DNA from: a candidate division WOR-3 bacterium
GTDB taxonomy: Bacteria; Hydrothermota; UBA3072; B12-G15
Assembly (NCBI GenBank): GCA_965649055.1
Contig: CBFGJG010000035.1
Coordinates: 1-21,815 of the forward strand
DNA length: 21,815 nt
Direction of reading: 5' to 3'
The notes beneath the pieces are model-generated. The model searched no databases, was not told the origin of the DNA, and worked only from the letters and a program-made list of their open reading frames with translations. The position numbers were made by a program, and so were the translations under genes. This document shows positions 553 through 19,642 of this stretch, in pieces (position 1 is the stretch's first letter; every line of letters starts with the position of its first letter).

Positions 553-1254
553 GTGAAAAAAAATTTCTGGAATGAATTAAGATCCTACATAGTTGGAATT
601 TTATTCGTTCTTTTTATAAGGGCTTTTTTTATACAGACATATCATGTTCCAACCGGTTCAATGGAGAAAACAATTCAGATTGGAGATTTTCTCATAGTGA
701 ACAGGTTTGTTTATGGAATGAAGATACCATTCACAGATAAATATTTTTTAAGATTTTCTTACCCTAAAAGATTTGACATCGTTGTATTCACATATCCTCT
801 TGGAAAATCTAATTTTGTAAAAAGACTCATCGGGCTACCTGGGGATACGATTGAAATAAAAAATAAGGTTGTTTATCTTAATGGGAATGAATTGAAAGAA
901 GATTACACACAGTTTATTGACAGGAATGTATATCCACACATAAGAGATATTATGAAACAAAATATTTCTGATAAAGAGTATCAATATTTTTGGGAAAACA
1001 GAAACTTCAAAAGAACCGCAAATGTTCGTGATAATTTTGGTCCTATTATTGTTCCCGAAAATTGCGTTTTTGTTCTTGGTGATAATCGTGATAACTCCGA
1101 TGATTCAAGATTCTGGGGTCCTCTACCAATTGATAATATTTCAGGTGTTCCAATCTTTATTTACTGGTCTATGTCTAGAAATGTTCCTTTGAGCAATTTC
1201 TTTAACAAGATAAGATGGTCAAGGATTGGACACTCAATAAAATGGAGGAAATAA
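553..1254 (+). CDS. lepB: Signal peptidase I (S26)
   Basis: N-terminal TM, catalytic Ser box VPTGSMEKT, Lys box FVKRLIGLPGD, box E LGDNRDNSDDSRFWG. Confidence 0.96.
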   Translation: MKKNFWNELRSYIVGILFVLFIRAFFIQTYHVPTGSMEKTIQIGDFLIVNRFVYGMKIPFTDKYFLRFSYPKRFDIVVFTYPLGKSNFVKRLIGLPGDTIEIKNKVVYLNGNELKEDYTQFIDRNVYPHIRDIMKQNISDKEYQYFWENRNFKRTANVRDNFGPIIVPENCVFVLGDNRDNSDDSRFWGPLPIDNISGVPIFIYWSMSRNVPLSNFFNKIRWSRIGHSIKWRK

Positions 1255-6862: not shown

Positions 6863-7750
6863 CTATAAAGAAAATAATTTTTTGAAATTTGTGATAAGAC
6901 TGCCTAATTTGAATTTAAAAAGAAAATAGGTCAAAAAGATAATAAATATAACAAAAATTGTTACTTCAACAAAATTTCCTATTTTTTTGTAATCTATCTT
7001 TATCTTCCTTCTTTCAATTTCTTCCTCTTCAAACTTTTCAGGCTTTTCTTCCTTAGTAAGAAGACCAAGCTCTATAAGATTAAAAAGAGCATTATAAGTT
7101 CTAAATTTTCCAAGACCGCTTTTTTCAATATAATCTTTCACCCTCATCCCATCCGAATGAATGTTTAAGATAACCTCTTCTTCCTTCCCAATTTCAACAT
7201 CAATCTTTTTTTTATCTGTGGAGAACAATTTAATATCAGGGTCATTTAAAACCTCTTTTATTCTTGGCCATTCATCAATCCTTCTTGCACCTTCCATAAG
7301 TAATGCATTAGGTTCAATTGCAACCTCTATCTTTCCCTCTTTATAAATCTGTTGATTAGGTTGAAAGGAATAAGTCCCTTCTTTCCAGGTCAAAACTTCA
7401 TCAAGTATTTCCTGTATTTTAAATTTGATTATCGATTTTATCTCATCCATTGTAATTATATTTTCTTCTAGAAGGACTTCGTATATCGGTCGATTTTCTG
7501 ATTTTGTCATAGATTTGTATCTTTTTAATTCTTCAGATGTCATTTTCCCTGAATTTACTATGAATTCTTCGAGTGGCTTAAACATATCCTGTTTTCCATA
7601 GAGTGCTCCGGAAACTTTTCCATTTAAAAAACCAAAAGATATTTCTTCATTTTTATTTTTGAATGTTAAAACGCCATCACCCTCATGTAAGGCAACAAAT
7701 TGAAATACCTCCGGGACCGGAAATTCCTCAATCTTTCCCTTAAGAGCCAT
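6863..7750 (-). CDS. DUF4388 (PatA-N-like) domain protein with C-terminal transmembrane anchor
   Basis: MALKGKIEEFPVPEVFQFV start, WKEGTYSF, LLMEGARRIDEW motifs typical of DUF4388; a wHTH-like segment (GLGKFRTYNALFNLIELGLL); hydrophobic C-terminal helix. Confidence 0.85.
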   Translation of the reverse strand: MALKGKIEEFPVPEVFQFVALHEGDGVLTFKNKNEEISFGFLNGKVSGALYGKQDMFKPLEEFIVNSGKMTSEELKRYKSMTKSENRPIYEVLLEENIITMDEIKSIIKFKIQEILDEVLTWKEGTYSFQPNQQIYKEGKIEVAIEPNALLMEGARRIDEWPRIKEVLNDPDIKLFSTDKKKIDVEIGKEEEVILNIHSDGMRVKDYIEKSGLGKFRTYNALFNLIELGLLTKEEKPEKFEEEEIERRKIKIDYKKIGNFVEVTIFVIFIIFLTYFLFKFKLGSLITNFKKLFSL

Positions 7751-9614
7751 AATCTACAATCCTACCTGTTGAAATAATTAATATACAATAGAATATTGAC
7801 AATATAATTATCATTACCAAAAATCCATGTATAGGTGTTGAATAGTTTGAAACAGGCAAAATATAAACAAGATTACCTAATAAATTTACGAGTATAAGAT
7901 TATAAATAAAAAGAAAAATAAAACCAGCAAAAATAAATCTTTTGTTTATGTGGACAGAACCCGGCAAAAAGATATTCATAATAATATATAGAATTCTTTC
8001 TCTTCTTTTGCCCTTATTTTCTATTAATTTCATCAGTCTTTTCCTTAAACTTTTGGATTGTGAAAATGAAATTTTTTCAAAACATTTTTCACATACTGGA
8101 ATTTCTTCTATTTTATTCAGATTAACAGCTGCACCCTTACACAAACTACAATGAACAGGAACAATTTCTTTTTTAAAAATATAAGAAAATAAAATAATAA
8201 TGAAACCGGCAAATATAAAGAATACCGAATAGAAATTTAATATATTAAAACTTCTAAAAAGGAATACATATATTGATTTTTCATCAGGATAGAAATCATA
8301 AATCTCGAATTTTGAACCTTTTAGTTTATCGATCATAGAAAAATATTTAGATGAGTTTGGAAAATCAAGTAGTTTTGCATATGTTTTTGCAATGTTGAAA
8401 TAAATATATTCAATCTCCGGAATTTTGTTTTTTTCAGCCTGAAGAAAGTAATATAAAGCACTATCATATTTACCTTCAATATAAAAACTGACACCTATAT
8501 TGTTTAATATTTTTTCTTTATATCCTCTATGTTTAAGCATATCTTTAAATATCTCCCTTGCAAGATAAGATTCCTCAATTTTTAATAATGCTGTTCCTTT
8601 CAACCATTGATCGTATAAATCAATTTTTTCAGTTTCAAATCTATTGTTAACAGGGTCATAAAAAGAATTTAAAATATTTAAATTGTTAGTGTTTTTTAAA
8701 AACTTCTCAATTGGAATTTTAAAACCGCAAAGTATACCAGTTGCCAATAAAATAATGCCAACAATAATTCTTTCTCTTTTCGATAAGAAAAATAGCGACA
8801 AAAGCACAAAAATAGAAATAAATATCTTCCATGGTAGGAACACTATCATTGAATAACATATACCAGTTATCCAGAATTCTTTTAGTTTTGTCTTTATAGA
8901 AAAAAGCTTACCTAAATATTCTACAGCATTCTTAAAAGAATATATAATTAAGGAAATAATAAAAAGTAAAAGAAGAATGATAAAAAATGTAATAGTATTA
9001 TGTATAAGATAAACAGAGTTATTTATGTATTTGAATGATTTTATATATCTAAATAAATAACCCAAACATTCTCTTCTGTTAGAATTCAATGTTAATTTAA
9101 AACCTTGCAAAGCAAGTTCTCTCCTCATCGGTGCTACATCTATCGCAGAAGCAATAAGATACAAACTTGTTTTATTGTTACCTATGTTTCTTTCTTCCCA
9201 TCCTTTTTTCTCGTAAATTTGAGAAATATAATAGTCAGCTTTAACATTTTTTATCTCATAGATGTCGTGAATTTTATCTTTTACCAGACTACTCCATTTA
9301 AAATTCAATCCATTTATAAAAATAAGATCCACTATTACTGCTTCTTGAAGTGTTTTTATACGAAGAATACACTCATTGTAAAAATTTTCATAAGGTTCTT
9401 TTTTCATCCTTTTTAGCTCGCCGATAAAAAGAGGAATAAATGGATTTTTACCGTCATCGTATTTCTTATATAATTCTTCAGCTTTTATAAAATCAACAGA
9501 TGGGATATAACCTCTTCCCTCAACTACTTTTCCAAATTGAGGATATATTTTTTTAGCAACTTCAAAATCCTTGTTATAAATGTCTATAATAATACAAAAA
9601 ATAAAATTAATCAT
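7740..9614 (-). CDS. Polytopic membrane protein with TPR repeats and a CxxC-CxxC zinc-binding motif
   Basis: Several hydrophobic helices; TPR-like ILNNIGVSFYIEGKYDSALYYF and YFNIAKTY; HCSLCKG...VCEKC; C-terminal LPGSVH + TM segment. Confidence 0.7.
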   Translation of the reverse strand: MINFIFCIIIDIYNKDFEVAKKIYPQFGKVVEGRGYIPSVDFIKAEELYKKYDDGKNPFIPLFIGELKRMKKEPYENFYNECILRIKTLQEAVIVDLIFINGLNFKWSSLVKDKIHDIYEIKNVKADYYISQIYEKKGWEERNIGNNKTSLYLIASAIDVAPMRRELALQGFKLTLNSNRRECLGYLFRYIKSFKYINNSVYLIHNTITFFIILLLLFIISLIIYSFKNAVEYLGKLFSIKTKLKEFWITGICYSMIVFLPWKIFISIFVLLSLFFLSKRERIIVGIILLATGILCGFKIPIEKFLKNTNNLNILNSFYDPVNNRFETEKIDLYDQWLKGTALLKIEESYLAREIFKDMLKHRGYKEKILNNIGVSFYIEGKYDSALYYFLQAEKNKIPEIEYIYFNIAKTYAKLLDFPNSSKYFSMIDKLKGSKFEIYDFYPDEKSIYVFLFRSFNILNFYSVFFIFAGFIIILFSYIFKKEIVPVHCSLCKGAAVNLNKIEEIPVCEKCFEKISFSQSKSLRKRLMKLIENKGKRRERILYIIMNIFLPGSVHINKRFIFAGFIFLFIYNLILVNLLGNLVYILPVSNYSTPIHGFLVMIIILSIFYCILIISTGRIVDYGS

Positions 9615-10243
9615 TCAAATTGTATTTTTTTAAATTTAACTTCAAGTTTATAAGAACCGGATGTTATAATTACATTATATGGATTATAATTATCATTTAT
9701 AGATTTGAAATTACTAAAAACAGCCTCAATATTCTGTCCGTTATTCACATATACCGATTTAACTGGATATTTTTTTTCATTATGAAGAAGAAGATTATAA
9801 TAGCTGTAAGACAATAATTCGCCTTCAGGAATTAACAACCTTTTGATATCTTTATTAATTAAAAAAGGAAAATGATATGTCACAAAATTTATAAAAACTT
9901 CTGATGGAATTATGTTTTGAGCAATTATTTTCTGTATACTTATTGAATCACCTTTACTATTAAATACCTTTATTCCGTTGTCTGTAATAATAAAATCTGC
10001 GACCTTTAAACCAAAAAGTGCAAACAAAGAACCAGTAAGTTCTCTTTTATTTTTATCATATGTATAGGTAAAAGATGCTGATACACTTTTTTCTGAAGAA
10101 ATAACAACTATATCCCCTTCTGCTGATTTGAAGTTATATTTATTAAACCAATATGTATAAGATTCCATTGTTGGTTTCGTTGATACCTTCTTACAACCAT
10201 TAAAGGCAATTATGTATAAAACAATCAAAAAAATCCTTGACAT
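9611..10243 (-). CDS. Lipoprotein, probable LolA/LolB-like fold (LolB/DUF4292-like)
   Basis: Signal MSRIFLIVLYIIAFNG-C17; beta-rich body with a SLFALFGLKVADFII motif resembling LolB-like proteins (recognised by eye). Confidence 0.55.
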   Translation of the reverse strand: MSRIFLIVLYIIAFNGCKKVSTKPTMESYTYWFNKYNFKSAEGDIVVISSEKSVSASFTYTYDKNKRELTGSLFALFGLKVADFIITDNGIKVFNSKGDSISIQKIIAQNIIPSEVFINFVTYHFPFLINKDIKRLLIPEGELLSYSYYNLLLHNEKKYPVKSVYVNNGQNIEAVFSNFKSINDNYNPYNVIITSGSYKLEVKFKKIQFE

Positions 10244-10282
10244 ATTGTTTTTTTAGTATAATAAAAAAATAAAAAGTGTCAA
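10237..10282. promoter_or_regulatory. Overlapping divergent promoters between the lipoprotein gene and smpB
   Basis: Minus strand TTGACA (10282-10277)-N16-TATACT (10260-10255). Plus strand TTGACA (10237-10242)-N14-TATAAT (10257-10262); the plus-strand spacer is suboptimal. Confidence 0.55.
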
Positions 10283-10289
10283 TGAAAAA

Positions 10290-10721
10290 ATGAAAATTAT
10301 TTGTAGAAACAAAAAGGCTTTTAGGGACTATGAAATATTTGAGAAATATGAAGCAGGAATTGTTTTGTATGGTAATGAAGTCAAATCAGTTAAGAATGGA
10401 ATGGTAAGTTTGCAGGATTCCTATGCAGGTGTTGAAAATGGTGAGATATTTATATATAATATGGATATATCACCGTATGAAAAAGAAGCATTTCATACTG
10501 ATAGGAAAAGAAAGAGAAAATTGTTATTAAAGAAGAGTGAAATAAAAAAAATTATAGGAAAAATTACTTTGAGAGGTTTTACATTGATACCAATATCAGT
10601 ATATATTAACGAAAGGAATCTTATAAAAATTGAATTAGCAATAGCAAGAGGAAAAAAGATGTATGAAAAAAGAGAAGAATTAAAAAAGAAAGATGCTGAG
10701 ATGGAGATAAAAAGAGAATGA
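10290..10721 (+). CDS. smpB: SsrA-binding protein SmpB
   Basis: NKKAFRDYEI...EAGIVL.G.EVKS, RKRKLLL, GFTLIP, ARGKKMYEKR. Confidence 0.97.
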   Translation: MKIICRNKKAFRDYEIFEKYEAGIVLYGNEVKSVKNGMVSLQDSYAGVENGEIFIYNMDISPYEKEAFHTDRKRKRKLLLKKSEIKKIIGKITLRGFTLIPISVYINERNLIKIELAIARGKKMYEKREELKKKDAEMEIKRE

Positions 10722-12064
10722 TTCTGCTCATTTTATCATTGCAAATTTCATATAAAAATAAAATATACGATATAAAAGTTATTAATACTGAGACATCAGA
10801 ATATGTAAATTTTACCGCTTTAATGAGTGATATAGGAATCCCTTACCTATATGACAAAGTTAAAAAATCATATACTTTTCAGAGAGAAAAAACACTTGTT
10901 ATAATACCTGATAATCCTTTCATAAAAGTAGATGATAAATTTATACAACTTTTTTACTCTCCTTTTGAATCAGAATCCAATCTTTATATTGAAAAAAGTG
11001 AATTTATAAAAGTTTTTTCATCTCTTGTAGATACAAGATTTAAAATTCAAAACGAACTCCTCCAGGAAGAAAGAGAATACAATATAAAAAATTTCAGATT
11101 AGGTGTTTCTCAGGATGAAACAACGATAATATTTGAAATTTCTCGTTCTTTAGAAGTTCTTTACAAAGGAAAAGATACATTATGGACTATAACTTTTTTT
11201 GAGCCTTATTATGACCCTTCTATATTTAATGTGACTTCAGGTGGTTTTGTAAACAAAATAGAAAGAAATGTAAAGGAAGGAATACTCGAAATAAAAATAA
11301 AGATTCAAGAAAATAAAGATGTTAATATAAAAAGAACAGGTAATGAGCTTAAAATTTCTGTTAGAAACTATAAAAAGAGAGAAATTAAGAATATAGTTAT
11401 TGATCCAGGTCATGGTGGCCATGATTTAGGTGGAACAGGAAATGGTCTATACGAGAAAGATGTTGTCCTTGATATTGCAAAAAGGGTTGCTAATGAACTT
11501 AAAAAAATGGGATTTAACATTACACTTACAAGAACAGAAGATGTATTCTTAAGTTTAAAAGAAAGAACACAGATAGCAGATAATATGAAAGCAGACCTAT
11601 TTGTAAGTATTCATTGTAATGCTGTTGGGAACAAGAAAAAAATAGATATGAATGGAACCGAGGTTTATTTCCTATCTGTTGCAAAAACAGACTGGACAAG
11701 GGCCGTTGAAGCAACTGAAAATTCCTCTATTCAGTTTGAAAATGGTAATATTGAAGAAAAAGGGCTGAAATATGTTTTATGGGACCTTGCACAGAACCAA
11801 TTCCTTGAAGAATCACAACAACTTGCTATATATATTCAGGAATCAATAGTAAATGAATGTAAAACAAAAGATAGAGGTGTTCAGCAGGCAAATTTTTATG
11901 TGTTACGTTTGAATTATATGCCTGCAGTTCTTATAGAAACCTTATTTATAACAAATCCGGAAGATGCAAAAAAATTAAAGGATAAAAACTTCCTTGATAA
12001 ATTGGCAAAAAGTATAGCAAATGGTATTAAAAAATATGTTGATAGATACGAAAGTCAGAAATAA
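10718..12064 (+). CDS. N-acetylmuramoyl-L-alanine amidase (Amidase_3, AmiA/B/C-like) with N-terminal accessory domains
   Basis: IVIDPGHGGHD, EKDVVL, FVSIHCN, MPAVLIETLFITN zinc/catalytic motifs; autoinhibitory-helix-like RAVEATEN insert. ATGA overlap with smpB. Confidence 0.93.
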   Translation: MILLILSLQISYKNKIYDIKVINTETSEYVNFTALMSDIGIPYLYDKVKKSYTFQREKTLVIIPDNPFIKVDDKFIQLFYSPFESESNLYIEKSEFIKVFSSLVDTRFKIQNELLQEEREYNIKNFRLGVSQDETTIIFEISRSLEVLYKGKDTLWTITFFEPYYDPSIFNVTSGGFVNKIERNVKEGILEIKIKIQENKDVNIKRTGNELKISVRNYKKREIKNIVIDPGHGGHDLGGTGNGLYEKDVVLDIAKRVANELKKMGFNITLTRTEDVFLSLKERTQIADNMKADLFVSIHCNAVGNKKKIDMNGTEVYFLSVAKTDWTRAVEATENSSIQFENGNIEEKGLKYVLWDLAQNQFLEESQQLAIYIQESIVNECKTKDRGVQQANFYVLRLNYMPAVLIETLFITNPEDAKKLKDKNFLDKLAKSIANGIKKYVDRYESQK

Positions 12065-12836
12065 TCCTATTGGTATTTTTGATTCTGGTATTGGCGGGCT
12101 TACAGTAGCAAAGGCAATCAAAAAATTATTACCATATGAACATATAGTATATTTTGGAGATACTGCCCGGTTGCCTTACGGAAATAAATCTAAAGAAACA
12201 ATCATAAAATTTGCTAAAGAAGATATTGAATTTCTATTAAAATTTAATGTTAAAGTTATTGTTTCTGCATGTTTTACTGTTTCATCAAATGCAATTGAAG
12301 AACTTAGAAACCTCTTTGAAATTCCAATAATTGACATGATTGAACCTTCTATTATACCGATAAAAAAAATAAAAGAAAAAAAGATTGGAATAATAGGAAC
12401 TGTTGCAACTATCGAGAGTGGTAGTTTTAAAAAACATATAGGAGAAGACAAAAAAATATATCAGAAGGCCTGTCCCCTATTTGTTCCAATAGTTGAAGAA
12501 GGCTTGTTTAATCATAAAATTGGTTTAATTGCCACAGAAGAATACCTGAAAGAATTTAAAAATAAAGGTATAAATACTATCGTTCTTGGATGCACTCATT
12601 ATACTCTAATGAGAAATACTATCAAAAAATATTTGGGAAAAGGAACAAAATTTATTGAGCCAGGTTATGAAGCTGCAATAATGTTAAAAAGATTACTTTT
12701 AGAAAATAATGCAACATCAGAAAATAATGGTGGATTTGATATTTACCTCTCGGATATACCAAGAAAGTTTGAGAAAATATTAAAAATATTTTTGGGGGAT
12801 GAGTTCAATTATAAAATAAAAAAAATCACCGAATAG
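12036..12836 (+). CDS. murI: Glutamate racemase
   Basis: IGIFDSGIGGLTV, YFGDTARLPYG, first Cys in SACFT, second in LGCTHY. The start could alternatively be 12021. Confidence 0.93.
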   Translation: MLIDTKVRNNPIGIFDSGIGGLTVAKAIKKLLPYEHIVYFGDTARLPYGNKSKETIIKFAKEDIEFLLKFNVKVIVSACFTVSSNAIEELRNLFEIPIIDMIEPSIIPIKKIKEKKIGIIGTVATIESGSFKKHIGEDKKIYQKACPLFVPIVEEGLFNHKIGLIATEEYLKEFKNKGINTIVLGCTHYTLMRNTIKKYLGKGTKFIEPGYEAAIMLKRLLLENNATSENNGGFDIYLSDIPRKFEKILKIFLGDEFNYKIKKITE

Positions 12837-13275
12837 ATTCTATCGCTCTTTCAACTGCTTTAAAAGGATCTTCAAAATTCTCTATACCTAATTTTGTATC
12901 GCAGTCTACACCAAAAACATTTTTACCAAAATGAATTGCGAAGGCGATTTCTGTCATTGTTCCAGTTCCACCATTTATTGCAATCAAAACATCCGCTGTT
13001 CTTACAATTATAACATTTCTCATCTCATTAATCCCGGTAACAATAGGGATATCTACAAAAGGATTTGCTTCATTTTTGTTTATCCCTGGTAATATACCTA
13101 TAACAAGACCCCCTGCATCCTTTGCGCCTCTTGAAGCCTCTTCCATAACCCCACCAAGACCTCCAGTCAATAATATATACCCTCTTTTTGCAATTTCGAA
13201 TCCAATTTTGTAAGCTTTCTCTTTTATTTTCTCATCTACAACTCTACCACCTATAACACCAATTATTTTTTTCAT
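12826..13275 (-). CDS. TIGR00725 family (LOG/DprA-like Rossmann fold) protein
   Basis: IGVIGG, TGGLGGVMEEASRGA, IGILPG, RNVIIV, GGTGTMTE. Confidence 0.88.
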   Translation of the reverse strand: MKKIIGVIGGRVVDEKIKEKAYKIGFEIAKRGYILLTGGLGGVMEEASRGAKDAGGLVIGILPGINKNEANPFVDIPIVTGINEMRNVIIVRTADVLIAINGGTGTMTEIAFAIHFGKNVFGVDCDTKLGIENFEDPFKAVERAIESIR

Positions 13276-16200
13276 CTTATTATTGACATTTTTTTCAGTA
13301 TTTTTTTTCTACCAACTTGTATTGAGTAGTAATAAACTCCATTAGGCAAATCCCTTCCATAATCATCAATAAGTTTCCACTCTATCCTGTTAAAACCTGT
13401 ATAACACCTCTGTTTCTTTGTCCAGATTTTCTTTCCGGTTACTGTATAGACAGATACTTCAACTTCGGTATCATTTAAAAGATAAAATGTAAAATATGTT
13501 TTATTACTTGCAGGATTAGGAAAGTTATATATCCCCCAGATATATTCGTCGTTTCTTAATATAAGATTAAGCTTCTTTTTCCCGAGGTTACCGCAGTTAT
13601 CAATACAATACACTTCTATAAAGAAAGTATCGGTATTTTCTGTTCTGATTGGGAGAATCACTTCTCCTGACTTAAAAGTTCCTGAATAATTATTAAACCT
13701 ATCACCGAGATAAACTGGTTTAGAATAATCATTTATGAATAGAACTATATTTTCATTTCTTCTAATATCTATTCCGCTTTCATCATTTATAATGATCCTT
13801 ATCTCAGAACCATTTGCAAAATAGTCATTTTCCTCTAACTCTTTATTACTCGAAAATATCCTTATTTCAGGTGGAATACTTTCAGAAGGTATTCCAGTCC
13901 TAAGAAAGATATTTTTATAACTATGAAATTCACTATCTAAATTATAAATATGCAATCTCGCTTTACCAAAGCCTTCCTTAGTATCAAATGGAATTATAGC
14001 CATAATCGTATCTTTATTCTGATAATTAACATTAAATATTTTTTTCCCTTCTAAAATAAAATTCACCGTAGTGTTTGAAACAGTATATGAAATTGAAGTA
14101 TCAGGCTGACTTAATGAAAAATAAATTTTCGGAAATTTATCTTCAAGAACTATATTGAATGGATTACCACCTATTATTGTATCAGGTGTATCGAATAAAA
14201 TATTAAAAGTGTCTTCAAAAACAGCTGTTGCCGGATCTCCAAAAAATATATATGCGGTATCACCATAAATATTCATTGCAGAAGTGTAAACTTCGCCAAA
14301 TGTTCTTTTAAATACAAGATTATTGACCAAATTACTTCCAAAAACTCTATTAGCACCTGCATATGTGGCACGCGTTGATGCAACTGAGACAATAGTCCCA
14401 CCATCGGGATATATATTAATGTAATCGGCAATAGACCTTTCATCAGGTCTTTCGAAAAATCCAGCATTACATGTTCCAAAATAAAACATCGGGCATTTTC
14501 TCCAGTTCTTAAGTTTTATAATGTCCTCCATAAGTAAAACCTTTTCATGTGCGAGCTGATATATATTCCCATGTCCTAAGTAATAACCAAAAATAGAACC
14601 TTTATTAAATTCTTCGATAAATTTTCTTGTAGCAGATGGTTTCATTCCATATTCTAAAGGATACAAAATAGTATAGATCTTACTTACCTCAAACCATTTT
14701 GGCAAAAGATTATATATTTGTTCGCAATATCCGGTATGATACAATAATTCAGTTCCGCTAACTCCTCCACCAACTCTTTCATCATCAGCGAGTATAATAA
14801 TTCTGTTCCTCCATTCTCCACCGGAAGATTCAAAATCAATCAGTTTATCTACCCATTGTTTTGCTTCAACCTTAGTTGTCAAAGTTACCCGACCAATTGG
14901 AATATCTGGCTTTGTATTTCCGTCGTAATCAACAAACCATACATCAACTGTTGGATTTGAAGCCAGTATTGAAGACAGGTCTATATCAGGTCCGTAAGTA
15001 TGAATAGGGACAAAATTCTGTGGAGAAGACAGGGATTTTAAGTTTTTGTAGTCGTAAGTTCCTTTACCAAAAAGAAGAACAAAAGATGGTGAAGGGGACC
15101 ATGATGTTGAAGTATGCAAAAGAAATCTCTTTATAGCACCGGGATCCCTGACACCAAATGAAAAATTATCGTAAATTTCATCAACTGTTATTACTTTTAC
15201 CTGTGGATTTTCGAAACCATTAAGCTTTTTTCTCCTATATTCTGCAAGAATTGAGGCTTCTTCTTTAAAGATTTGGGAAGTTATGCATATCCAGTCTGCA
15301 CCGCTGTTCCACAAACTTGAAACACTTGAAATTTTGGCTTCTATCGGATATAATAAAGTATCTGTTATGAATAAATTCTTTCCATCATATCCGAAAAAGT
15401 TTCCTGACTTTTTTAAATTGACCGGTTTATAGTAATCGTCTATACCAAGAATATATTTCTTGTTTGTGGAGAAAAGTCTATTTAGGGAATCAGAAAAATT
15501 AACAAAATTATTATTTACAGAATTAATATTTTTCCAATAAGTTATTTCAATATAATCAATATATATAATTGCCTTTGAATTCAATATTTCAAATTTTAAA
15601 TTATTATTACCATTTTTTAAATTATAGAAAGTGTCTACAATTGTCATTCTCTCTCTATAAAAAAATCTTGGTGTAAAAAAAGTATCGTTAACAGCTTCAC
15701 CATTAAGATAAAGTATTGAGTAATGCTGAGTTGTAGAAATACCACAATATATTCCCATTTTTACAATGCAGAAAGAATCAATTGCATCATCTATATTGAA
15801 ACTATAAGAGAAATAATTTACATCAGAAGGGACAGTAATTGAACTCCATATCCATGTAAGACCGGAACGTGAAGGATTATCGATGTCTTTCTCAAAATGG
15901 ACTGTATGCAAAAATTTTTCTGTATTCTGCCCCTGATTTATTATTTTTTCTTCCATCTCAAACCTACTCCCATTAGTTTTTATCCAGTAAACATTTGTAT
16001 CAGTATAAGGATTATAATAATACCACCAATTTATGTCTGTTCCTGGAACTGGATAAGGATCTGAAAAACGTTCGAGATAATTTCTTTCAAAACCATTAAG
16101 TGACCTGGCGAAAAAAATAACATATTCACCTTCGTCAAATTTCCCGTTTTCATTAAAAACATTATAAATAGCAGGGACTTTAAAGGGTAATGTATCGAGA

Positions 16201-16901
16201 GAATCAAAGAAAGAATTTTTAAATTTAAAAATATTTCTATATCCTGTTCTAATCTCAACATTCTCAGGTGCTACTAAATCAGGATTAATTCCATTATCTT
16301 GTAAAAATTTCCTATCTATTTTGTAAATACCATCTTTTATTATCTTCATTTTTATCCATATACCATCATCCTTTGCGATTCTTTGTCTTATAAAATATCT
16401 TTCACCCTTTGGTTTGTTCAAAAAATTAACAAAAATATTATAATTAGGTTTATACCATTTACCTTTAAAATAAATTCTAACAATTATCTCTTTTCTTATT
16501 TCTATTTTTTCACCTTCGAAAGAAAAAGGAAAAAGATAAACTTCTGCGGTTTTTACTTTATTGCCATAAATCGCTATCTTTGCAGGTTCAACAATTACAG
16601 GTTTATAATCTTTTTTTTCGCGTTCAGCCAAAATATCAATGTTTGATTTCAATATACCTTTTACATATTCTTTGTTTTTTACATGATACTTCATTATAGC
16701 GCCATTTTCTGAGACAAGTATATTGAATTTGATAAAAGGTAAAGATGGTTCCCCAATATCAGTAAAAATATTCCCATCCTTAAGTTCTATACTTAAAGAA
16801 TCACCCTCAGCATATATTGAATATTCAGGTGAATAAGAAAATACAAGAGAATCATCAGTATCACAAATAATTTTCAAAGAAGCTAAAAAAATAAAAATCA
16901 T
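13272..16901 (-). CDS. Peptidase C25 (gingipain family) protein, PorU-like architecture, with C-terminal FlgD/T9SS-sorting-like Ig domain
   Basis: Propeptide-like GEPSLP; KDGIYKID; YNPYTDTNVYW; VDEIYDNFSFGVRDPGAIKRFL; IPIGRV; His in GHG (14571-14573) and Cys in GTCN (14469-14471); FFGDPA; DESGID; NFPNPAS...VYTVTGKKI...LPNGVYYY. Confidence 0.85.
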   Translation of the reverse strand: MIFIFLASLKIICDTDDSLVFSYSPEYSIYAEGDSLSIELKDGNIFTDIGEPSLPFIKFNILVSENGAIMKYHVKNKEYVKGILKSNIDILAEREKKDYKPVIVEPAKIAIYGNKVKTAEVYLFPFSFEGEKIEIRKEIIVRIYFKGKWYKPNYNIFVNFLNKPKGERYFIRQRIAKDDGIWIKMKIIKDGIYKIDRKFLQDNGINPDLVAPENVEIRTGYRNIFKFKNSFFDSLDTLPFKVPAIYNVFNENGKFDEGEYVIFFARSLNGFERNYLERFSDPYPVPGTDINWWYYYNPYTDTNVYWIKTNGSRFEMEEKIINQGQNTEKFLHTVHFEKDIDNPSRSGLTWIWSSITVPSDVNYFSYSFNIDDAIDSFCIVKMGIYCGISTTQHYSILYLNGEAVNDTFFTPRFFYRERMTIVDTFYNLKNGNNNLKFEILNSKAIIYIDYIEITYWKNINSVNNNFVNFSDSLNRLFSTNKKYILGIDDYYKPVNLKKSGNFFGYDGKNLFITDTLLYPIEAKISSVSSLWNSGADWICITSQIFKEEASILAEYRRKKLNGFENPQVKVITVDEIYDNFSFGVRDPGAIKRFLLHTSTSWSPSPSFVLLFGKGTYDYKNLKSLSSPQNFVPIHTYGPDIDLSSILASNPTVDVWFVDYDGNTKPDIPIGRVTLTTKVEAKQWVDKLIDFESSGGEWRNRIIILADDERVGGGVSGTELLYHTGYCEQIYNLLPKWFEVSKIYTILYPLEYGMKPSATRKFIEEFNKGSIFGYYLGHGNIYQLAHEKVLLMEDIIKLKNWRKCPMFYFGTCNAGFFERPDERSIADYINIYPDGGTIVSVASTRATYAGANRVFGSNLVNNLVFKRTFGEVYTSAMNIYGDTAYIFFGDPATAVFEDTFNILFDTPDTIIGGNPFNIVLEDKFPKIYFSLSQPDTSISYTVSNTTVNFILEGKKIFNVNYQNKDTIMAIIPFDTKEGFGKARLHIYNLDSEFHSYKNIFLRTGIPSESIPPEIRIFSSNKELEENDYFANGSEIRIIINDESGIDIRRNENIVLFINDYSKPVYLGDRFNNYSGTFKSGEVILPIRTENTDTFFIEVYCIDNCGNLGKKKLNLILRNDEYIWGIYNFPNPASNKTYFTFYLLNDTEVEVSVYTVTGKKIWTKKQRCYTGFNRIEWKLIDDYGRDLPNGVYYYSIQVGRKKILKKMSIIR

Positions 16902-17062
16902 AACTTTTCAGCCTCTTCGATAATCAGTATTGGAATACCTTCCTTAATAGGAAATGCAAGCTTACAATTTTTACATATTAATCTATCTTTATCCTCATCA
17001 TATATAAAGTCTCCTTTGCATTTCGGACAGGCAATGATATCAAGTAACTTTTTATCAATCAT
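16898..17062 (-). CDS. Trm112/YcaR family zinc-binding protein (54 aa, absent from the ORF track)
   Basis: Hand translation MIDKKLLDIIACPKCKGDFIYDEDKDRLICKNCKLAFPIKEGIPILIIEEAEKL*. SD AGGAGG upstream; ATGA overlaps on both sides. Confidence 0.93.
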   Translation of the reverse strand: MIDKKLLDIIACPKCKGDFIYDEDKDRLICKNCKLAFPIKEGIPILIIEEAEKL

Positions 17063-18015
17063 TTTAACCTCCTATAATTTTTTACTTTACCATTTAACTC
17101 ACCCGAAACTATTATCGAATAATACAGGTCTCTTTCTATTTCATCTTTAAAGGGGAAAAATATATATTTTTTACCAATCCCACAGGAGACAAAAACATTA
17201 TCCACAAAAAAGCCAATATATCCTTCAACATTATCTTCAATCGAGATTGTAATTGATGGTCTTCCTTTTTGATCATATAATTTATCTACTTGTTTATAAA
17301 CTATATTAATTGGTGATAAAATACTATATGCAAAAAGTGTATCAATCGGGTCTTTTATTTTACCATTATAATCGTTTTTTAAAAGAAAAAATTCAACCTT
17401 ACCTTTATTAAAAATTCTTTCATCAATATCTCTTACCTCTTTAAATTTTAAAATATTCCCTTCTATGGAAATATCTCTTTCGCCAAAAGTAATCAATCTC
17501 TTGATTAAATTATCTATCTCGCCTTCATAATCAATGTAAAATTTTGCAGTTGGAGATCTATCTTTTGATATAATTATCCTGAAAAAAGCGTTATCCCCGG
17601 AACATATTATATTTCTTATCGTAGAATCTTTAATAAAGATCTCACCCTTACCAATTCCTGCGTTTGGATTTAAGAAGAAAAGATTTGCAGTAAAATTAAA
17701 AATATAAAAACCATTCTTATACTCTTTAAATTTAAAATCGTTTTCTCCAGATACTACCCTTATCATCTCATAGGGATTAAAATCTTGTAATTTCTCTTTC
17801 TTCCCATCAATAACAATTTCCCCTTCCATCTGATATTTTCCACCACCAATGTAATTACCTTTTGACTTAAAAGTCATAATTTTATTTTTCATTTCCCATT
17901 CAAAAGAAAAACCACTTTCAAGATTATCTATCATTTCTTTTATATTAAAATTGGGTATATCATTTATAATCATCTGTTTTTTAGCACAAAAAGAAATAAA
18001 TATGAAAAAAAACAT
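17059..18015 (-). CDS. Hypothetical probable lipoprotein with C-terminal SecD P1-like domain
   Basis: MFFFIFISF-C10 N-terminus. The C-terminal half has KRLITFG, GKVEFFL, DQKGRPSITI, IGFFVDNVFVS and SGEL segments that parallel the SecD periplasmic domain. No internal TM helices. Confidence 0.6.
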   Translation of the reverse strand: MFFFIFISFCAKKQMIINDIPNFNIKEMIDNLESGFSFEWEMKNKIMTFKSKGNYIGGGKYQMEGEIVIDGKKEKLQDFNPYEMIRVVSGENDFKFKEYKNGFYIFNFTANLFFLNPNAGIGKGEIFIKDSTIRNIICSGDNAFFRIIISKDRSPTAKFYIDYEGEIDNLIKRLITFGERDISIEGNILKFKEVRDIDERIFNKGKVEFFLLKNDYNGKIKDPIDTLFAYSILSPINIVYKQVDKLYDQKGRPSITISIEDNVEGYIGFFVDNVFVSCGIGKKYIFFPFKDEIERDLYYSIIVSGELNGKVKNYRRLK

Positions 18016-18795
18016 TTAAAACTCCAGAACTTTGAAACCGAATTTTTTTATAGTTGTCTCAGCCTCAACAATACCATAATCGAGATGTTCCTTTTTATGA
18101 GCATCACTACCTATTGAAATATATATTCCGCCAACGTCTTTATATATCTCAAGAAGTTCTTCAGACGGATAAGGTTCTCCGGTTTGCTGTCTTAATCCAG
18201 ATGTGTTTATTTCAGGAATGATGTTCCTTTCAACTGCTTCACGAAATATCTTTTCAATCTTTAAGTGAAATTTTTTCCATACATGCTTTGCTATCTCTAT
18301 GTTTGTTGCGTATTTCTTATAATAATCAAAATGACCAATTATATTAAAAATCCCTGATAAAACGAGATTATTAAGTTCTTCGTAATAAATCCCGGCAGCA
18401 TATTCAATCTCATCATCTGCAAAACTTTTCATCCAATCCGAAATTATAGTATCATTCATACAATGTATTGAACCTATTTTAATTTCAAATCTTTTATTAT
18501 TAAGGTATTCCTTTATTTCATTTTCTCTGACTTTTTCATAACCTACCTCAACACCGAAAATAATTTTTATATTATTATATTTAATATTTAACATTTCATT
18601 CAAATTTTCAGCATCTTCATACTTGTAATGACCATAAGCAGGGTCTTTGGGATTAAAATCAAGATGGTCAGTTATTGAAATTACATTATAATTCCTGAGA
18701 AGGGAATTTTCAACTATGAATTCAGGGTCAAGTTCAGAATCAAATGAAAATTTTGAATGTATATGAAGATTTACTTTAGGATAGTAATTCATCAA
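18016..18795 (-). CDS. PHP-family phosphatase, histidinol-phosphatase HisJ/HisK-like
   Basis: NLHIHSKFSFDS, ITDH, GVEVG, GSIH, GHFDY, EINTSG, GSDAH. Confidence 0.9.
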   Translation of the reverse strand: MMNYYPKVNLHIHSKFSFDSELDPEFIVENSLLRNYNVISITDHLDFNPKDPAYGHYKYEDAENLNEMLNIKYNNIKIIFGVEVGYEKVRENEIKEYLNNKRFEIKIGSIHCMNDTIISDWMKSFADDEIEYAAGIYYEELNNLVLSGIFNIIGHFDYYKKYATNIEIAKHVWKKFHLKIEKIFREAVERNIIPEINTSGLRQQTGEPYPSEELLEIYKDVGGIYISIGSDAHKKEHLDYGIVEAETTIKKFGFKVLEF

Positions 18796-19642
18796 TAAAC
18801 TCTTCCGGATTAAATTCTACGATATCGTCTATTCCTTCCCCAATTCCCACAAAAACAACAGGTATATTAAATTTTTTTATAATTGGTATAATTATTCCAC
18901 CTTTTGCAGTTCCATCCATCTTTGATAAAACAATCCCTGTAATCTCGATACTTTTATGAAACATCTCTATCTGGTTCAATGCGTTTTGTCCTGTTGTTCC
19001 ATCAATAACAATAAAGATTTCCTGTGGAATATCGCTCCTTTTCTTGTTCAATGTTCTTTTTATCTTCTTCATCTCTTCAAGTAAATTCACCTTTGTATGA
19101 AGTCTTCCAGCTGTATCAATTAAAAGACAGTCAATACTTCTTGCAACTGCAGCATCAAAAGCATCGAAAGCAACTGCCGATGGATCTGAACCATAGTTTG
19201 AAGAAATTATATCACCACCCGACCTTTCTGCCCAGATTTTCAACTGTTCCTGAGCACCTGTTCTAAAAGTATCACATGCAGCGAAAAGGACCTTTTTACC
19301 TTTTTTTGAAAGATAATAACCAATCTTTCCTATAGATGTTGTCTTCCCTACTCCATTTACTCCAACGAAAAGATATGTAACAGGCTTCTGATAATCTTTT
19401 TCTTCCAGTTTAACATTAACTATATTTATTAAGATTTCCTTAAGTCTATTAATATAATTTTCAGGATTTGTTTTTTTCAGTTCATTAAGGATTTCATTAG
19501 TTGTTTCAATTCCCACATCCCCTGAAATAAGAATGTATTCAATCTCTTTCAGTGCTTCAGGGTCTTTTCTTCTTAAAAGATTAACTATTTTACCAAAAAT
19601 ATTTTCTTTAGTTTTCTTTATTGCTTCCCTTAAAGATTTCAA
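18776..19642 (-). CDS. ftsY: Signal recognition particle receptor FtsY (NG domain only)
   Basis: GVNGVGKTT, DTFR, DTAGRL, DGTTGQN, KMDGTAKGG, GIGEGIDD. Confidence 0.97.
   Translation of the reverse strand: MKSLREAIKKTKENIFGKIVNLLRRKDPEALKEIEYILISGDVGIETTNEILNELKKTNPENYINRLKEILINIVNVKLEEKDYQKPVTYLFVGVNGVGKTTSIGKIGYYLSKKGKKVLFAACDTFRTGAQEQLKIWAERSGGDIISSNYGSDPSAVAFDAFDAAVARSIDCLLIDTAGRLHTKVNLLEEMKKIKRTLNKKRSDIPQEIFIVIDGTTGQNALNQIEMFHKSIEITGIVLSKMDGTAKGGIIIPIIKKFNIPVVFVGIGEGIDDIVEFNPEEFIDELLS

Follow-up and report, generated by a model that had tools for sequence, protein, structure and literature searches.

The signal peptides that direct bacterial proteins to the Sec system are classically tripartite and consist of an n-, an h- and a c-region, as laid out in passages of PMC9360617. 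The corresponding passages of the description of SignalP 6.0 take an n-region of 2 residues as a minimum and not as the norm, and they state that the formylated methionine of bacteria adds no charge, while in archaea and eukaryotes a charge is supplied by the free N-terminal amine (PMC9287161). This n-h-c model with its basic n-region underlies the teaching of Sec-targeting, the interaction with SecA and lipids, the positive-inside rule and the predictors of signal peptides. The present study concerns a group of N-termini with a different organization. They are found in a stretch of 21,815 nucleotides (termed the window), which is one whole contig of the genome of a candidate division WOR-3 bacterium (2.08 Mb in 85 contigs, 31.6% GC), where four genes encode proteins that start with a methionine followed at once by a short run of mostly hydrophobic residues, with neither Lys nor Arg at its beginning. 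We consider these short leaders to be real N-termini that act as minimal signal peptides of the Sec type, a reading to which we assign a probability of about 0.7 on the basis of sequence comparisons.

The first of the four genes encodes an N-acetylmuramoyl-L-alanine amidase of 448 residues (10718–12064, forward strand; Amidase_3 domain PF01520 at residues 226–439, E-value 9.5e-60), whose substrate is peptidoglycan and which therefore has to be exported. Its short signal (10718–10753, forward strand) is contained in the first 12 codons, MILLILSLQISY, and neither Lys nor Arg is found ahead of residue 13. The ATG at 10718 shares four nucleotides with the TGA stop codon of smpB, and an in-frame TGA is located seven codons upstream at 10697–10699. 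The second gene encodes a C25 peptidase of 1209 residues with a type IX C-terminal sorting domain (13272–16901, reverse strand; PF01364 at 1.7e-62, PF18962 at 28.7 bits), in which PF01364 is combined with PF18962 or TIGR04183. Since its score of 402.6 bits against the NCBIfam model of the PorU sortase (NF033707) falls just below the cut-off of 420, we refer to it as PorU-like. Its short signal comprises 13 codons, MIFIFLASLKIIC (16863–16901, reverse strand), and is followed by a conserved DT(P/D)DSL block. The ATG at 16901 shares four nucleotides with the TGA of a Trm112-like gene of 54 codons, and an in-frame TGA at 16910–16908 lies three codons upstream. The third gene encodes a conserved lipoprotein of 318 residues (17059–18015, reverse strand), which was found in 10 of the 31 genomes searched and had no Pfam or NCBIfam match in our family scans. 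Its lipoprotein-type signal MFFFIFISFC (17986–18015, reverse strand) contains nine residues before a conserved Cys, and its ATG at 18015 comes immediately after the TAA (18018–18016) of a gene encoding a PHP domain. The fourth is a membrane protein of 624 residues (7740–9614, reverse strand) with several hydrophobic segments and weak TPR matches (TPR_1 at 19.3 bits, below the cut-off), whose N-terminus, as read from the start region, is MINFIFCIIID (9582–9614, reverse strand). Here, an in-frame TGA at 9617–9615 is found directly upstream of the ATG at 9614, which shares four nucleotides with the stop codon of the gene at 9611–10243. The first Lys or Arg is residue 10 or later in all four proteins. 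The initial annotation had described the four starts at these positions as non-extendable and as overlapping or abutting the upstream stop codon, and it had set them against the gene starting at 10243. A reading of the start regions confirms this description throughout, and the contrasting gene (9611–10243, reverse strand) indeed encodes a lipoprotein whose signal, MSRIFLIVLYIIAFNGC, is canonical and contains an Arg at position 3 and a Cys at position 17.

The same pattern recurs throughout the genome on families that obligately require export, as became evident from the genome-wide tally that had been recommended along with the initial annotation. Genes were called crudely with our own dicodon model, which yielded 1922 genes, 1874 of them complete at the 5' end, and expected counts were derived from how often a pattern follows an internal Met (43 of 10290 for the strict pattern). 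A Met followed by at least five residues of the set Ile, Leu, Phe, Val, Met, Trp and Cys is found in 126 of the 1874 genes (115 if the start of the longest ORF is used) where 7.8 would be expected, and the additional requirement of Ser, Gly or Thr at position 7 leaves 55 starts compared to 1.6 expected. Canonical starts, where Met is followed by Lys or Arg and then by hydrophobic residues, number 155 compared to 6.2 expected. Spurious small ORFs as a source are ruled out by the persistence of the excess in genes of at least 400 codons, where 50 short and 53 canonical starts are found against an expectation of 2.2. With four such starts among the 22 ORFs scanned and a rate of 6.7% in the genome, the window is not exceptional within its genome.

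We find it hardly credible that the pattern is a product of chance, in which T-rich codons following the ATG in a genome of low GC content would give rise to runs of Phe, Ile and Leu that are not truly export signals. Loose hydrophobic starts do emerge in this way, in 8.8% of random genomic ATGs that are followed by 12 open codons and in 3–5% of internal positions, but the strict pattern exceeds the rate at internal Met residues 16-fold, a factor that rises to 34 when position 7 is Ser, Gly or Thr. Moreover, the short starts are concentrated on families that require export, the pattern is absent from all 15 proteins of the window with cytoplasmic-type Pfam families, and a similar enrichment was seen neither in shuffled or antisense controls nor on cytoplasmic families. 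The leaders are also conserved at the level of amino acids in relatives with a GC content of 0.40–0.44. A low-GC artefact is ruled out by the enrichment over internal Met residues and by a relative of the same class (G025), which shows the highest share of short starts despite a GC content of 0.44 at the sampled loci, thus illustrating that the trait is not an effect of composition.

The initial annotation had also contrasted short starts at operon-internal positions with a canonical start at the beginning of an operon. Short starts overlap or abut the upstream gene more often than canonical ones (63 of 126 compared to 38 of 155), and the link to an operon-internal position is therefore a tendency and not a rule.

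Leaders that appear short could also be artefacts, if a frameshift, a wrongly chosen start codon, initiation at an upstream non-AUG codon or read-through of a TGA concealed an n-region. There are features that invite this suspicion, namely the in-frame TGA just upstream of the start in three of the four window genes, the in-frame codons preceding the ATGs of the amidase and the PorU-like protein, which translate into peptides rich in Lys and Arg, and a gene of the Omp85 family elsewhere in the genome that lacks a start codon behind a run of 11 A, which suggests that local assembly errors do occur. We nevertheless regard an origin as artefacts as highly improbable. The reads of four hot-spring metagenome runs covering positions 9500–18100 contain zero inserted or deleted letters, which includes the four starts, and contigs without gaps span all four of them, including those of a population of about 92% identity. 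An assembly frameshift hiding a longer signal, which the initial annotation had named as a result that would overturn its proposal, is thus ruled out, and identical starts are found in 23 to 50 independent assemblies. Neither ATG nor GTG nor TTG occurs among the Lys- and Arg-rich codons ahead of these two ATGs, which correspond either to the purine-rich end of the gene that overlaps from upstream, translated in another frame, or to a Shine-Dalgarno site read in frame. Upstream non-AUG starts, for which there is no room behind the Shine-Dalgarno site, are thereby ruled out as well. The in-frame stop codons upstream of short starts show the same mix of TAA, TGA and TAG as those of other genes, and TGA terminates smpB and the Trm112-like gene at the full length of their Pfam models, which together rule out a read-through of TGA. 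A strong Shine-Dalgarno site precedes 43% of the short starts (54 of 126), 66% of the canonical starts and 40% of the starts of proteins without an early hydrophobic stretch, and the mode of its spacing in front of short starts equals that of other genes. The short leaders are genuine and conserved N-termini of proteins that require export. The population of about 92% identity mentioned above was encountered in two further hot-spring runs from another study and is collinear with positions 9500–18100 of the window, from which it differs by numerous substitutions but by no gap.

Orthologues of all four window genes have kept the short starts, and a comparison of N-termini as suggested at the outset thus favours the proposal. 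In case of the amidase, 23 orthologous loci besides its own were compared, which cover the family, the order and two additional families of the class. Each of them begins with Met-Ile or Met-Val and additional hydrophobic residues, and the leader in the other family of the order runs up to Leu-Ser-Gly at residue 14. Among public homologues with at least 41% identity, several of which are named candidate division WOR-3 by their sources, 50 of 50 contain neither Lys nor Arg within the first 10 residues. One public homologue (P0103, 503 residues) combines SmpB and Amidase_3 domains in a single call, which may be a frameshift or a real fusion. The PorU-like protein has 11 orthologues whose leaders of 13–15 residues are devoid of Lys and Arg and end in a small residue before the conserved DTPDSL block, and all 11 orthologues of the TPR protein that were displayed start with Met and 8–11 uncharged, mostly hydrophobic residues. 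The Cys of the 318-residue lipoprotein is present in 10 of 10 loci, preceded by residues that resemble a lipobox, with the Phe at −1 of the window copy being unusual. Within the family of the window's genome, 8–9 residues with no basic one among them precede this Cys, while in the other family of the order 12–14 residues do, starting with Met-Arg (Arg at residues 2–3).

The distribution of the trait among relatives was addressed with proteins carrying a type IX sorting domain, by selecting the best-scoring PF18962 matches whose open frame spans 300 residues or more and whose predicted start lies within the contig, which were classified with the same scoring script. The resulting tallies are samples of kin and not independent tests. 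Within the same family, we found 3 short and 13 canonical starts in G001 (1 unscored, 1 cut) and 5 short and 13 canonical starts in G002 (2 unscored), and G008 of the same order contains 0 short and 17 canonical starts (1 unscored, 1 without a start, 1 cut). The share is higher in two genomes of the same class, with 9 short and 8 canonical starts in G024 (3 cut) and 14 short and 6 canonical starts in G025. For more distant members of the phylum, the numbers of short and canonical starts are 1 and 17 in G027 (2 cut), 2 and 15 in G028 (1 unscored) and 10 and 9 in G030 (1 unscored), where the uncharged leaders are of near-normal length with 13–23 residues. A metagenome-assembled genome of the Cloacimonadota (G031), which was included as outgroup since it holds the sole and distant locus (22% identity) in a search of genome contigs with the PorU-like protein, shows 1 short and 18 canonical starts (1 cut). 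The signals of the amidase and the PorU-like protein are canonical in G027 and G029 and uncharged in G026, and G030 combines an uncharged leader of the amidase with a PorU-like protein containing Lys at residue 2. The trait is thus patchy across the phylum, common in some relatives and rare in others, and it does not follow the GC content, which at the sampled loci is 0.44 in G025 and 0.40 in G008. The class of minimal signals without basic n-region proposed in the initial annotation as specific to this lineage has in this way been substantiated as clade-restricted, since it is found genome-wide, is conserved and is common in some relatives. The sequence pattern, its placement on exported families, its conservation and its distribution in the clade are direct observations.

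Which proteins carry short signals is best illustrated by the cargo of the type IX system, where PF18962 serves as marker for proteins that must first cross the inner membrane. The domain has 58 matches in the genome, 10 of which are cut at the 5' end and 48 complete, and the script classified the latter into 24 canonical, 17 short and unextendable, 1 ambiguous and 6 without hydrophobic stretch. Inspection by eye revealed that 2 of the 24 canonical assignments rest on a TTG without Shine-Dalgarno site, in both of which an ATG with such a site gives a short start, and that 3 of the 6 unscored proteins also look short, so that the number of short starts ranges between 17 and 23 of the 48. One cargo frame (G000:C72:3986–4135, forward strand) begins with a repeated ILSYL unit and contains no start codon within its first 80 codons. 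Among proteins of the outer membrane, the start is short in BamA, in all three full-length TolC-like proteins, in three of the four receptors with a Plug domain (TonB-dependent), the fourth being canonical, and in both large OmpA-domain proteins. About 10–12 residues separate the Met from the first conserved domain of the TolC-like proteins and the receptors. Canonical signals are found in two Pal-like lipoproteins, in one OmpA-domain protein that is apparently anchored to the membrane, in the DegP-like protease, in the S41 protease CtpA and in Skp, and no hydrophobic stretch was scored in a sixth OmpA-domain match. The second Omp85 gene has no start codon after the run of 11 A described above. 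Its frame (G000:C57, from about 4563, reverse strand) contains no ATG, GTG or TTG at the 5' end and begins with KKKFLIFLLFLSC right after this run, which also ends the upstream gene; this may reflect a homopolymer error or an unusual start. A Cys in a lipobox-like context is present in 49 of the 155 canonical but only in 5 of the 126 short starts, at median positions 16 and 12, respectively, with the 318-residue protein of the window being one of the five. Nearly all lipoproteins have thus retained a basic n-region, mostly with Met-Lys-Lys at the start, and this skew implies that the loss of the n-region is selective for substrates of the type processed by signal peptidase I. Among predicted exported proteins other than lipoproteins, the short class accounts for about half and is as large as the canonical class.

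The short leaders share a common anatomy. Met1 is followed at once by 5–8 strongly hydrophobic residues (Ile, Leu and Phe), and a positively charged n-region is absent, the class being defined by the lack of Lys and Arg before the core. Positions 2 and 3 are hydrophobic in 83–85% of the short signals, whereas they are Lys or Arg in 65% and 57% of the canonical ones, and the hydrophobic stretch covers positions 2–6 (83–91%) instead of about 4–14. Ser occupies position 7 in 26% of cases, and Ser, Gly or Thr are often found at positions 7–9, after which a few uncharged residues follow, with the hydrophobicity being back to background by about position 11. The uncharged stretch has a median length of 10 residues and ends at residue 11 (15 residues and residue 18 in the canonical class), and the contiguous core has a median of 6 residues compared to 8 in canonical signals and 7–15 in a usual h-region. 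The first charged residue is found at about position 12 in the short and at about position 19 in the canonical class. It is acidic in 77 of 125 short signals, which exceeds the expectation, and in 72 of 155 canonical signals, and the net charge of the subsequent eight residues is −0.54 and +0.06, respectively, in a proteome containing 13.5% Lys and Arg and 13.0% Asp and Glu. These properties distinguish the leaders from other N-terminal signals, since none of the four in the window contains an Arg before the core, where substrates of the Tat pathway have a twin-arginine motif, since the leaders are uncharged with a hydrophobic stretch of 5–10 residues, unlike type IV pilin-like signals (SPIII) with their short basic leader, Gly at −1 and about 20 hydrophobic residues with Glu at +5, and since the uncharged stretch reaches only to residue 11 in the median, while a signal anchor would extend over about 18 residues or more.

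Sequence also provides hints on cleavage. The orthologues of the PorU-like protein contain a small residue at −1 and an aliphatic residue at −3 in front of the DTPDSL block (Val-x-Ser or Ile-x-Ala), and in most orthologues of the amidase Leu-Ser-Gly precedes the conserved part. The frequency of Gln shows a peak at positions 8–13 in short and at 18–20 in canonical signals. In relatives of the Bacteroidota, Gln is said to come after the cleavage site, and the peak is a weak hint of a cut near residues 8–12.

The initial annotation had speculated that such signals might need adapted components of the SRP, Sec or LepB machinery and had noted lepB, ftsY and a SecD-P1-like gene in the window. The first two are confirmed by scores above the cut-offs of curated models: signal peptidase I, LepB (553–1254, forward strand; PF10502 at 4.2e-49, TIGR02227 at 156.7 bits with a cut-off of 47), is the sole copy in the genome and contains the usual Ser, Lys and GDNR boxes, and FtsY, the SRP receptor of 288 residues (18776–19642, reverse strand), scores 319 bits against TIGR00064 with a cut-off of 260.7. 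The SecD-P1-like gene is not confirmed, as Pfam detects no SecD-like domain in the 22 proteins of the window that were scanned. As LepB, FtsY, Ffh, SRP RNA, SecA and LspA are all single and ordinary, a need for adapted components is likewise not supported by sequence, with one copy each of the Ffh M domain, SecA, LspA and the SRP RNA in the genome (G000). An additional LepB paralogue acting as adapted peptidase is ruled out by the presence of exactly one gene of the Peptidase_S26 family in each of the 31 genomes. A search for the Ffh M domain (PF02978) was successful in 25 of 31 genomes; the domain was not found in G003, G017 and G022, which are 70–78% complete, nor in G004 (95% complete), and in G026 (99% complete) and G030 (100% complete, 3 contigs) the search also returned no candidate on first look. 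Short leaders are abundant in G000, G024 and G025, where SRP is present, and Ffh, FtsY and SRP RNA occur in this genome and its class, so that the trait does not depend on a loss of SRP.

Route, orientation and cleavage of the short leaders can be inferred from these properties. The nascent chain would enter SecYEG as a short hairpin, whose orientation might depend on the free N-terminal amine together with the acidic residues that follow the core instead of on the charges of an n-region. The single, ordinary LepB probably removes the leader afterwards, a task that would fall to the single LspA in the few proteins with a lipobox Cys, the 318-residue protein being one of them. As a consequence of their short core, the leaders would probably be poor substrates of SRP and may thus use the post-translational route via SecA. 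This route would agree with the preference of the leaders for barrels of the outer membrane and cargo of the type IX system, and with their occurrence in relatives in which the search for Ffh gave no hit.

Instead of a cleaved Sec signal, the leader could be a tag for targeting or tethering, either as a weak tether that is not removed or as the mark of a separate, undescribed route for the export or sorting of outer-membrane and surface proteins. Such a role would account for the lack of a clear −3/−1 site in many leaders, for the very short core and for the recurrent Ser at position 7, which points more to a motif than to an unspecific hydrophobic run, and it would agree with a class that is concentrated on barrels of the outer membrane and cargo of the type IX system, with canonical signals on lipoproteins and on three housekeeping proteins of the periplasm. 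However, the amidase and the TPR membrane protein carry the same element, the leader of the 318-residue lipoprotein runs up to a conserved lipobox Cys and takes exactly the place of a canonical signal for signal peptidase II in relatives, and small residues precede the conserved mature block in the orthologues of the PorU-like protein and the amidase. In addition, no candidate for an extra peptidase is known, with one LepB per genome, and 8–10 hydrophobic residues cannot span the bilayer as a stable anchor. We thus consider a tag of this kind unlikely.

The interpretation as minimal Sec-type signal peptides has to be weighed against a number of observations. With a looser definition, about 260 starts qualify as short where 60–95 are expected by chance, and some of these belong to clearly cytoplasmic proteins such as GTPases and amidotransferases. 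The gene calls are crude ones of our own, the tallies in relatives are derived from 18–20 start regions per genome that are best-scoring matches and may be biased, and the split between outer-membrane and periplasmic proteins is based on about 15 proteins. A core of 5–8 residues is at or below the presumed limit for engaging Sec. The short leaders are not more hydrophobic than canonical ones, as their first six core residues have a Kyte-Doolittle mean of 3.30 compared to 3.48, and a compensation of the lost charge by extra hydrophobicity is thus not seen. Finally, the cleavage sites are weak: positions −1 and −3 are not clearly occupied by small residues in several short leaders, for which the amidase of the window, with Tyr-Lys where its relatives have Tyr-Gly or Ser-Gly, is an example. 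These points all count against the proposed function.

A more far-reaching version of the proposed function would be that hot-spring lineages of WOR-3 have a second natural class of Sec signals, which are uncharged, 7–12 residues long, bypass SRP and constitute the default for outer-membrane and surface proteins, whereas lipoproteins and proteins anchored in the inner membrane retain classical signals. We put this forward tentatively, with the odds being somewhat against it. If true, the real minimum for Sec-targeting would lie well under what the n-h-c model of the textbooks assumes, a large share of these secretomes would escape standard predictors, and the routing around SRP may have allowed sister classes to lose it, as suggested for G026 and G030, where the Ffh M domain was not found.

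Some additional features of the window and its genome were noted. The start of the longest ORF of glutamate racemase overlaps with the end of the amidase by 44 nucleotides (12021–12064), and a second Met six codons further down may be the actual start. In FtsY, the match to TIGR00064 covers residues 27–287, which leaves no space for a long acidic domain at the N-terminus. The fraction of IVYWREL residues in the crude proteome is 0.430 and that of Ala 4.1%; the linear IVYWREL rule points to growth near 65–70 °C, which agrees with the metagenome runs being labelled as hot-spring samples. For the relatives, indices of thermophily calculated from single proteins were too noisy to be informative.

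The members of the class provide a natural test case, since about half of the exported proteins other than lipoproteins, among them the essential BamA, appear to do without n-region and with half an h-region. The leaders would thus show how little sequence is needed for Sec export and what substitutes for charge. Predictions of secretomes and outer-membrane proteins for these candidate phyla are probably too low, relatives without SRP may share the trait, which would make the question of how a bacterium loses SRP more approachable, and the leaders might be tried as secretion tags of very small size.

A full-text search, whose library largely excluded subscription journals, yielded no account of such leaders, either in WOR-3 or in other organisms. 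Among known systems, the closest relationship is to the signals recognized by Sec and signal peptidase I, with which the short leaders share the N-terminal location, the hydrophobic character, the occurrence on proteins that cross the inner membrane and frequently a small residue before the mature part, in a genome that also uses the classical form with one ordinary LepB, SecA and SRP. They differ in the absence of an n-region with Lys or Arg and in a core of 5–8 instead of about 11 residues. With respect to signals for Sec and signal peptidase II, the 318-residue protein resembles the known type by its conserved lipobox-type Cys after a hydrophobic stretch and by the presence of LspA, but with nine residues before the Cys, none of them basic, it differs from this type and is an exception in its genome. 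Signals of the eukaryotic endoplasmic reticulum and mutants of Escherichia coli with an n-region devoid of charge also work with little or no basic charge and a short, very hydrophobic core. These, however, belong to another domain of life or are crippled laboratory mutants, whereas the leaders described here are natural, conserved and shorter overall. The short leaders thus appear to work like a Sec signal peptide, yet they lack the n-region by which such peptides are defined, and their core is located at or below the usual limit of an h-region.

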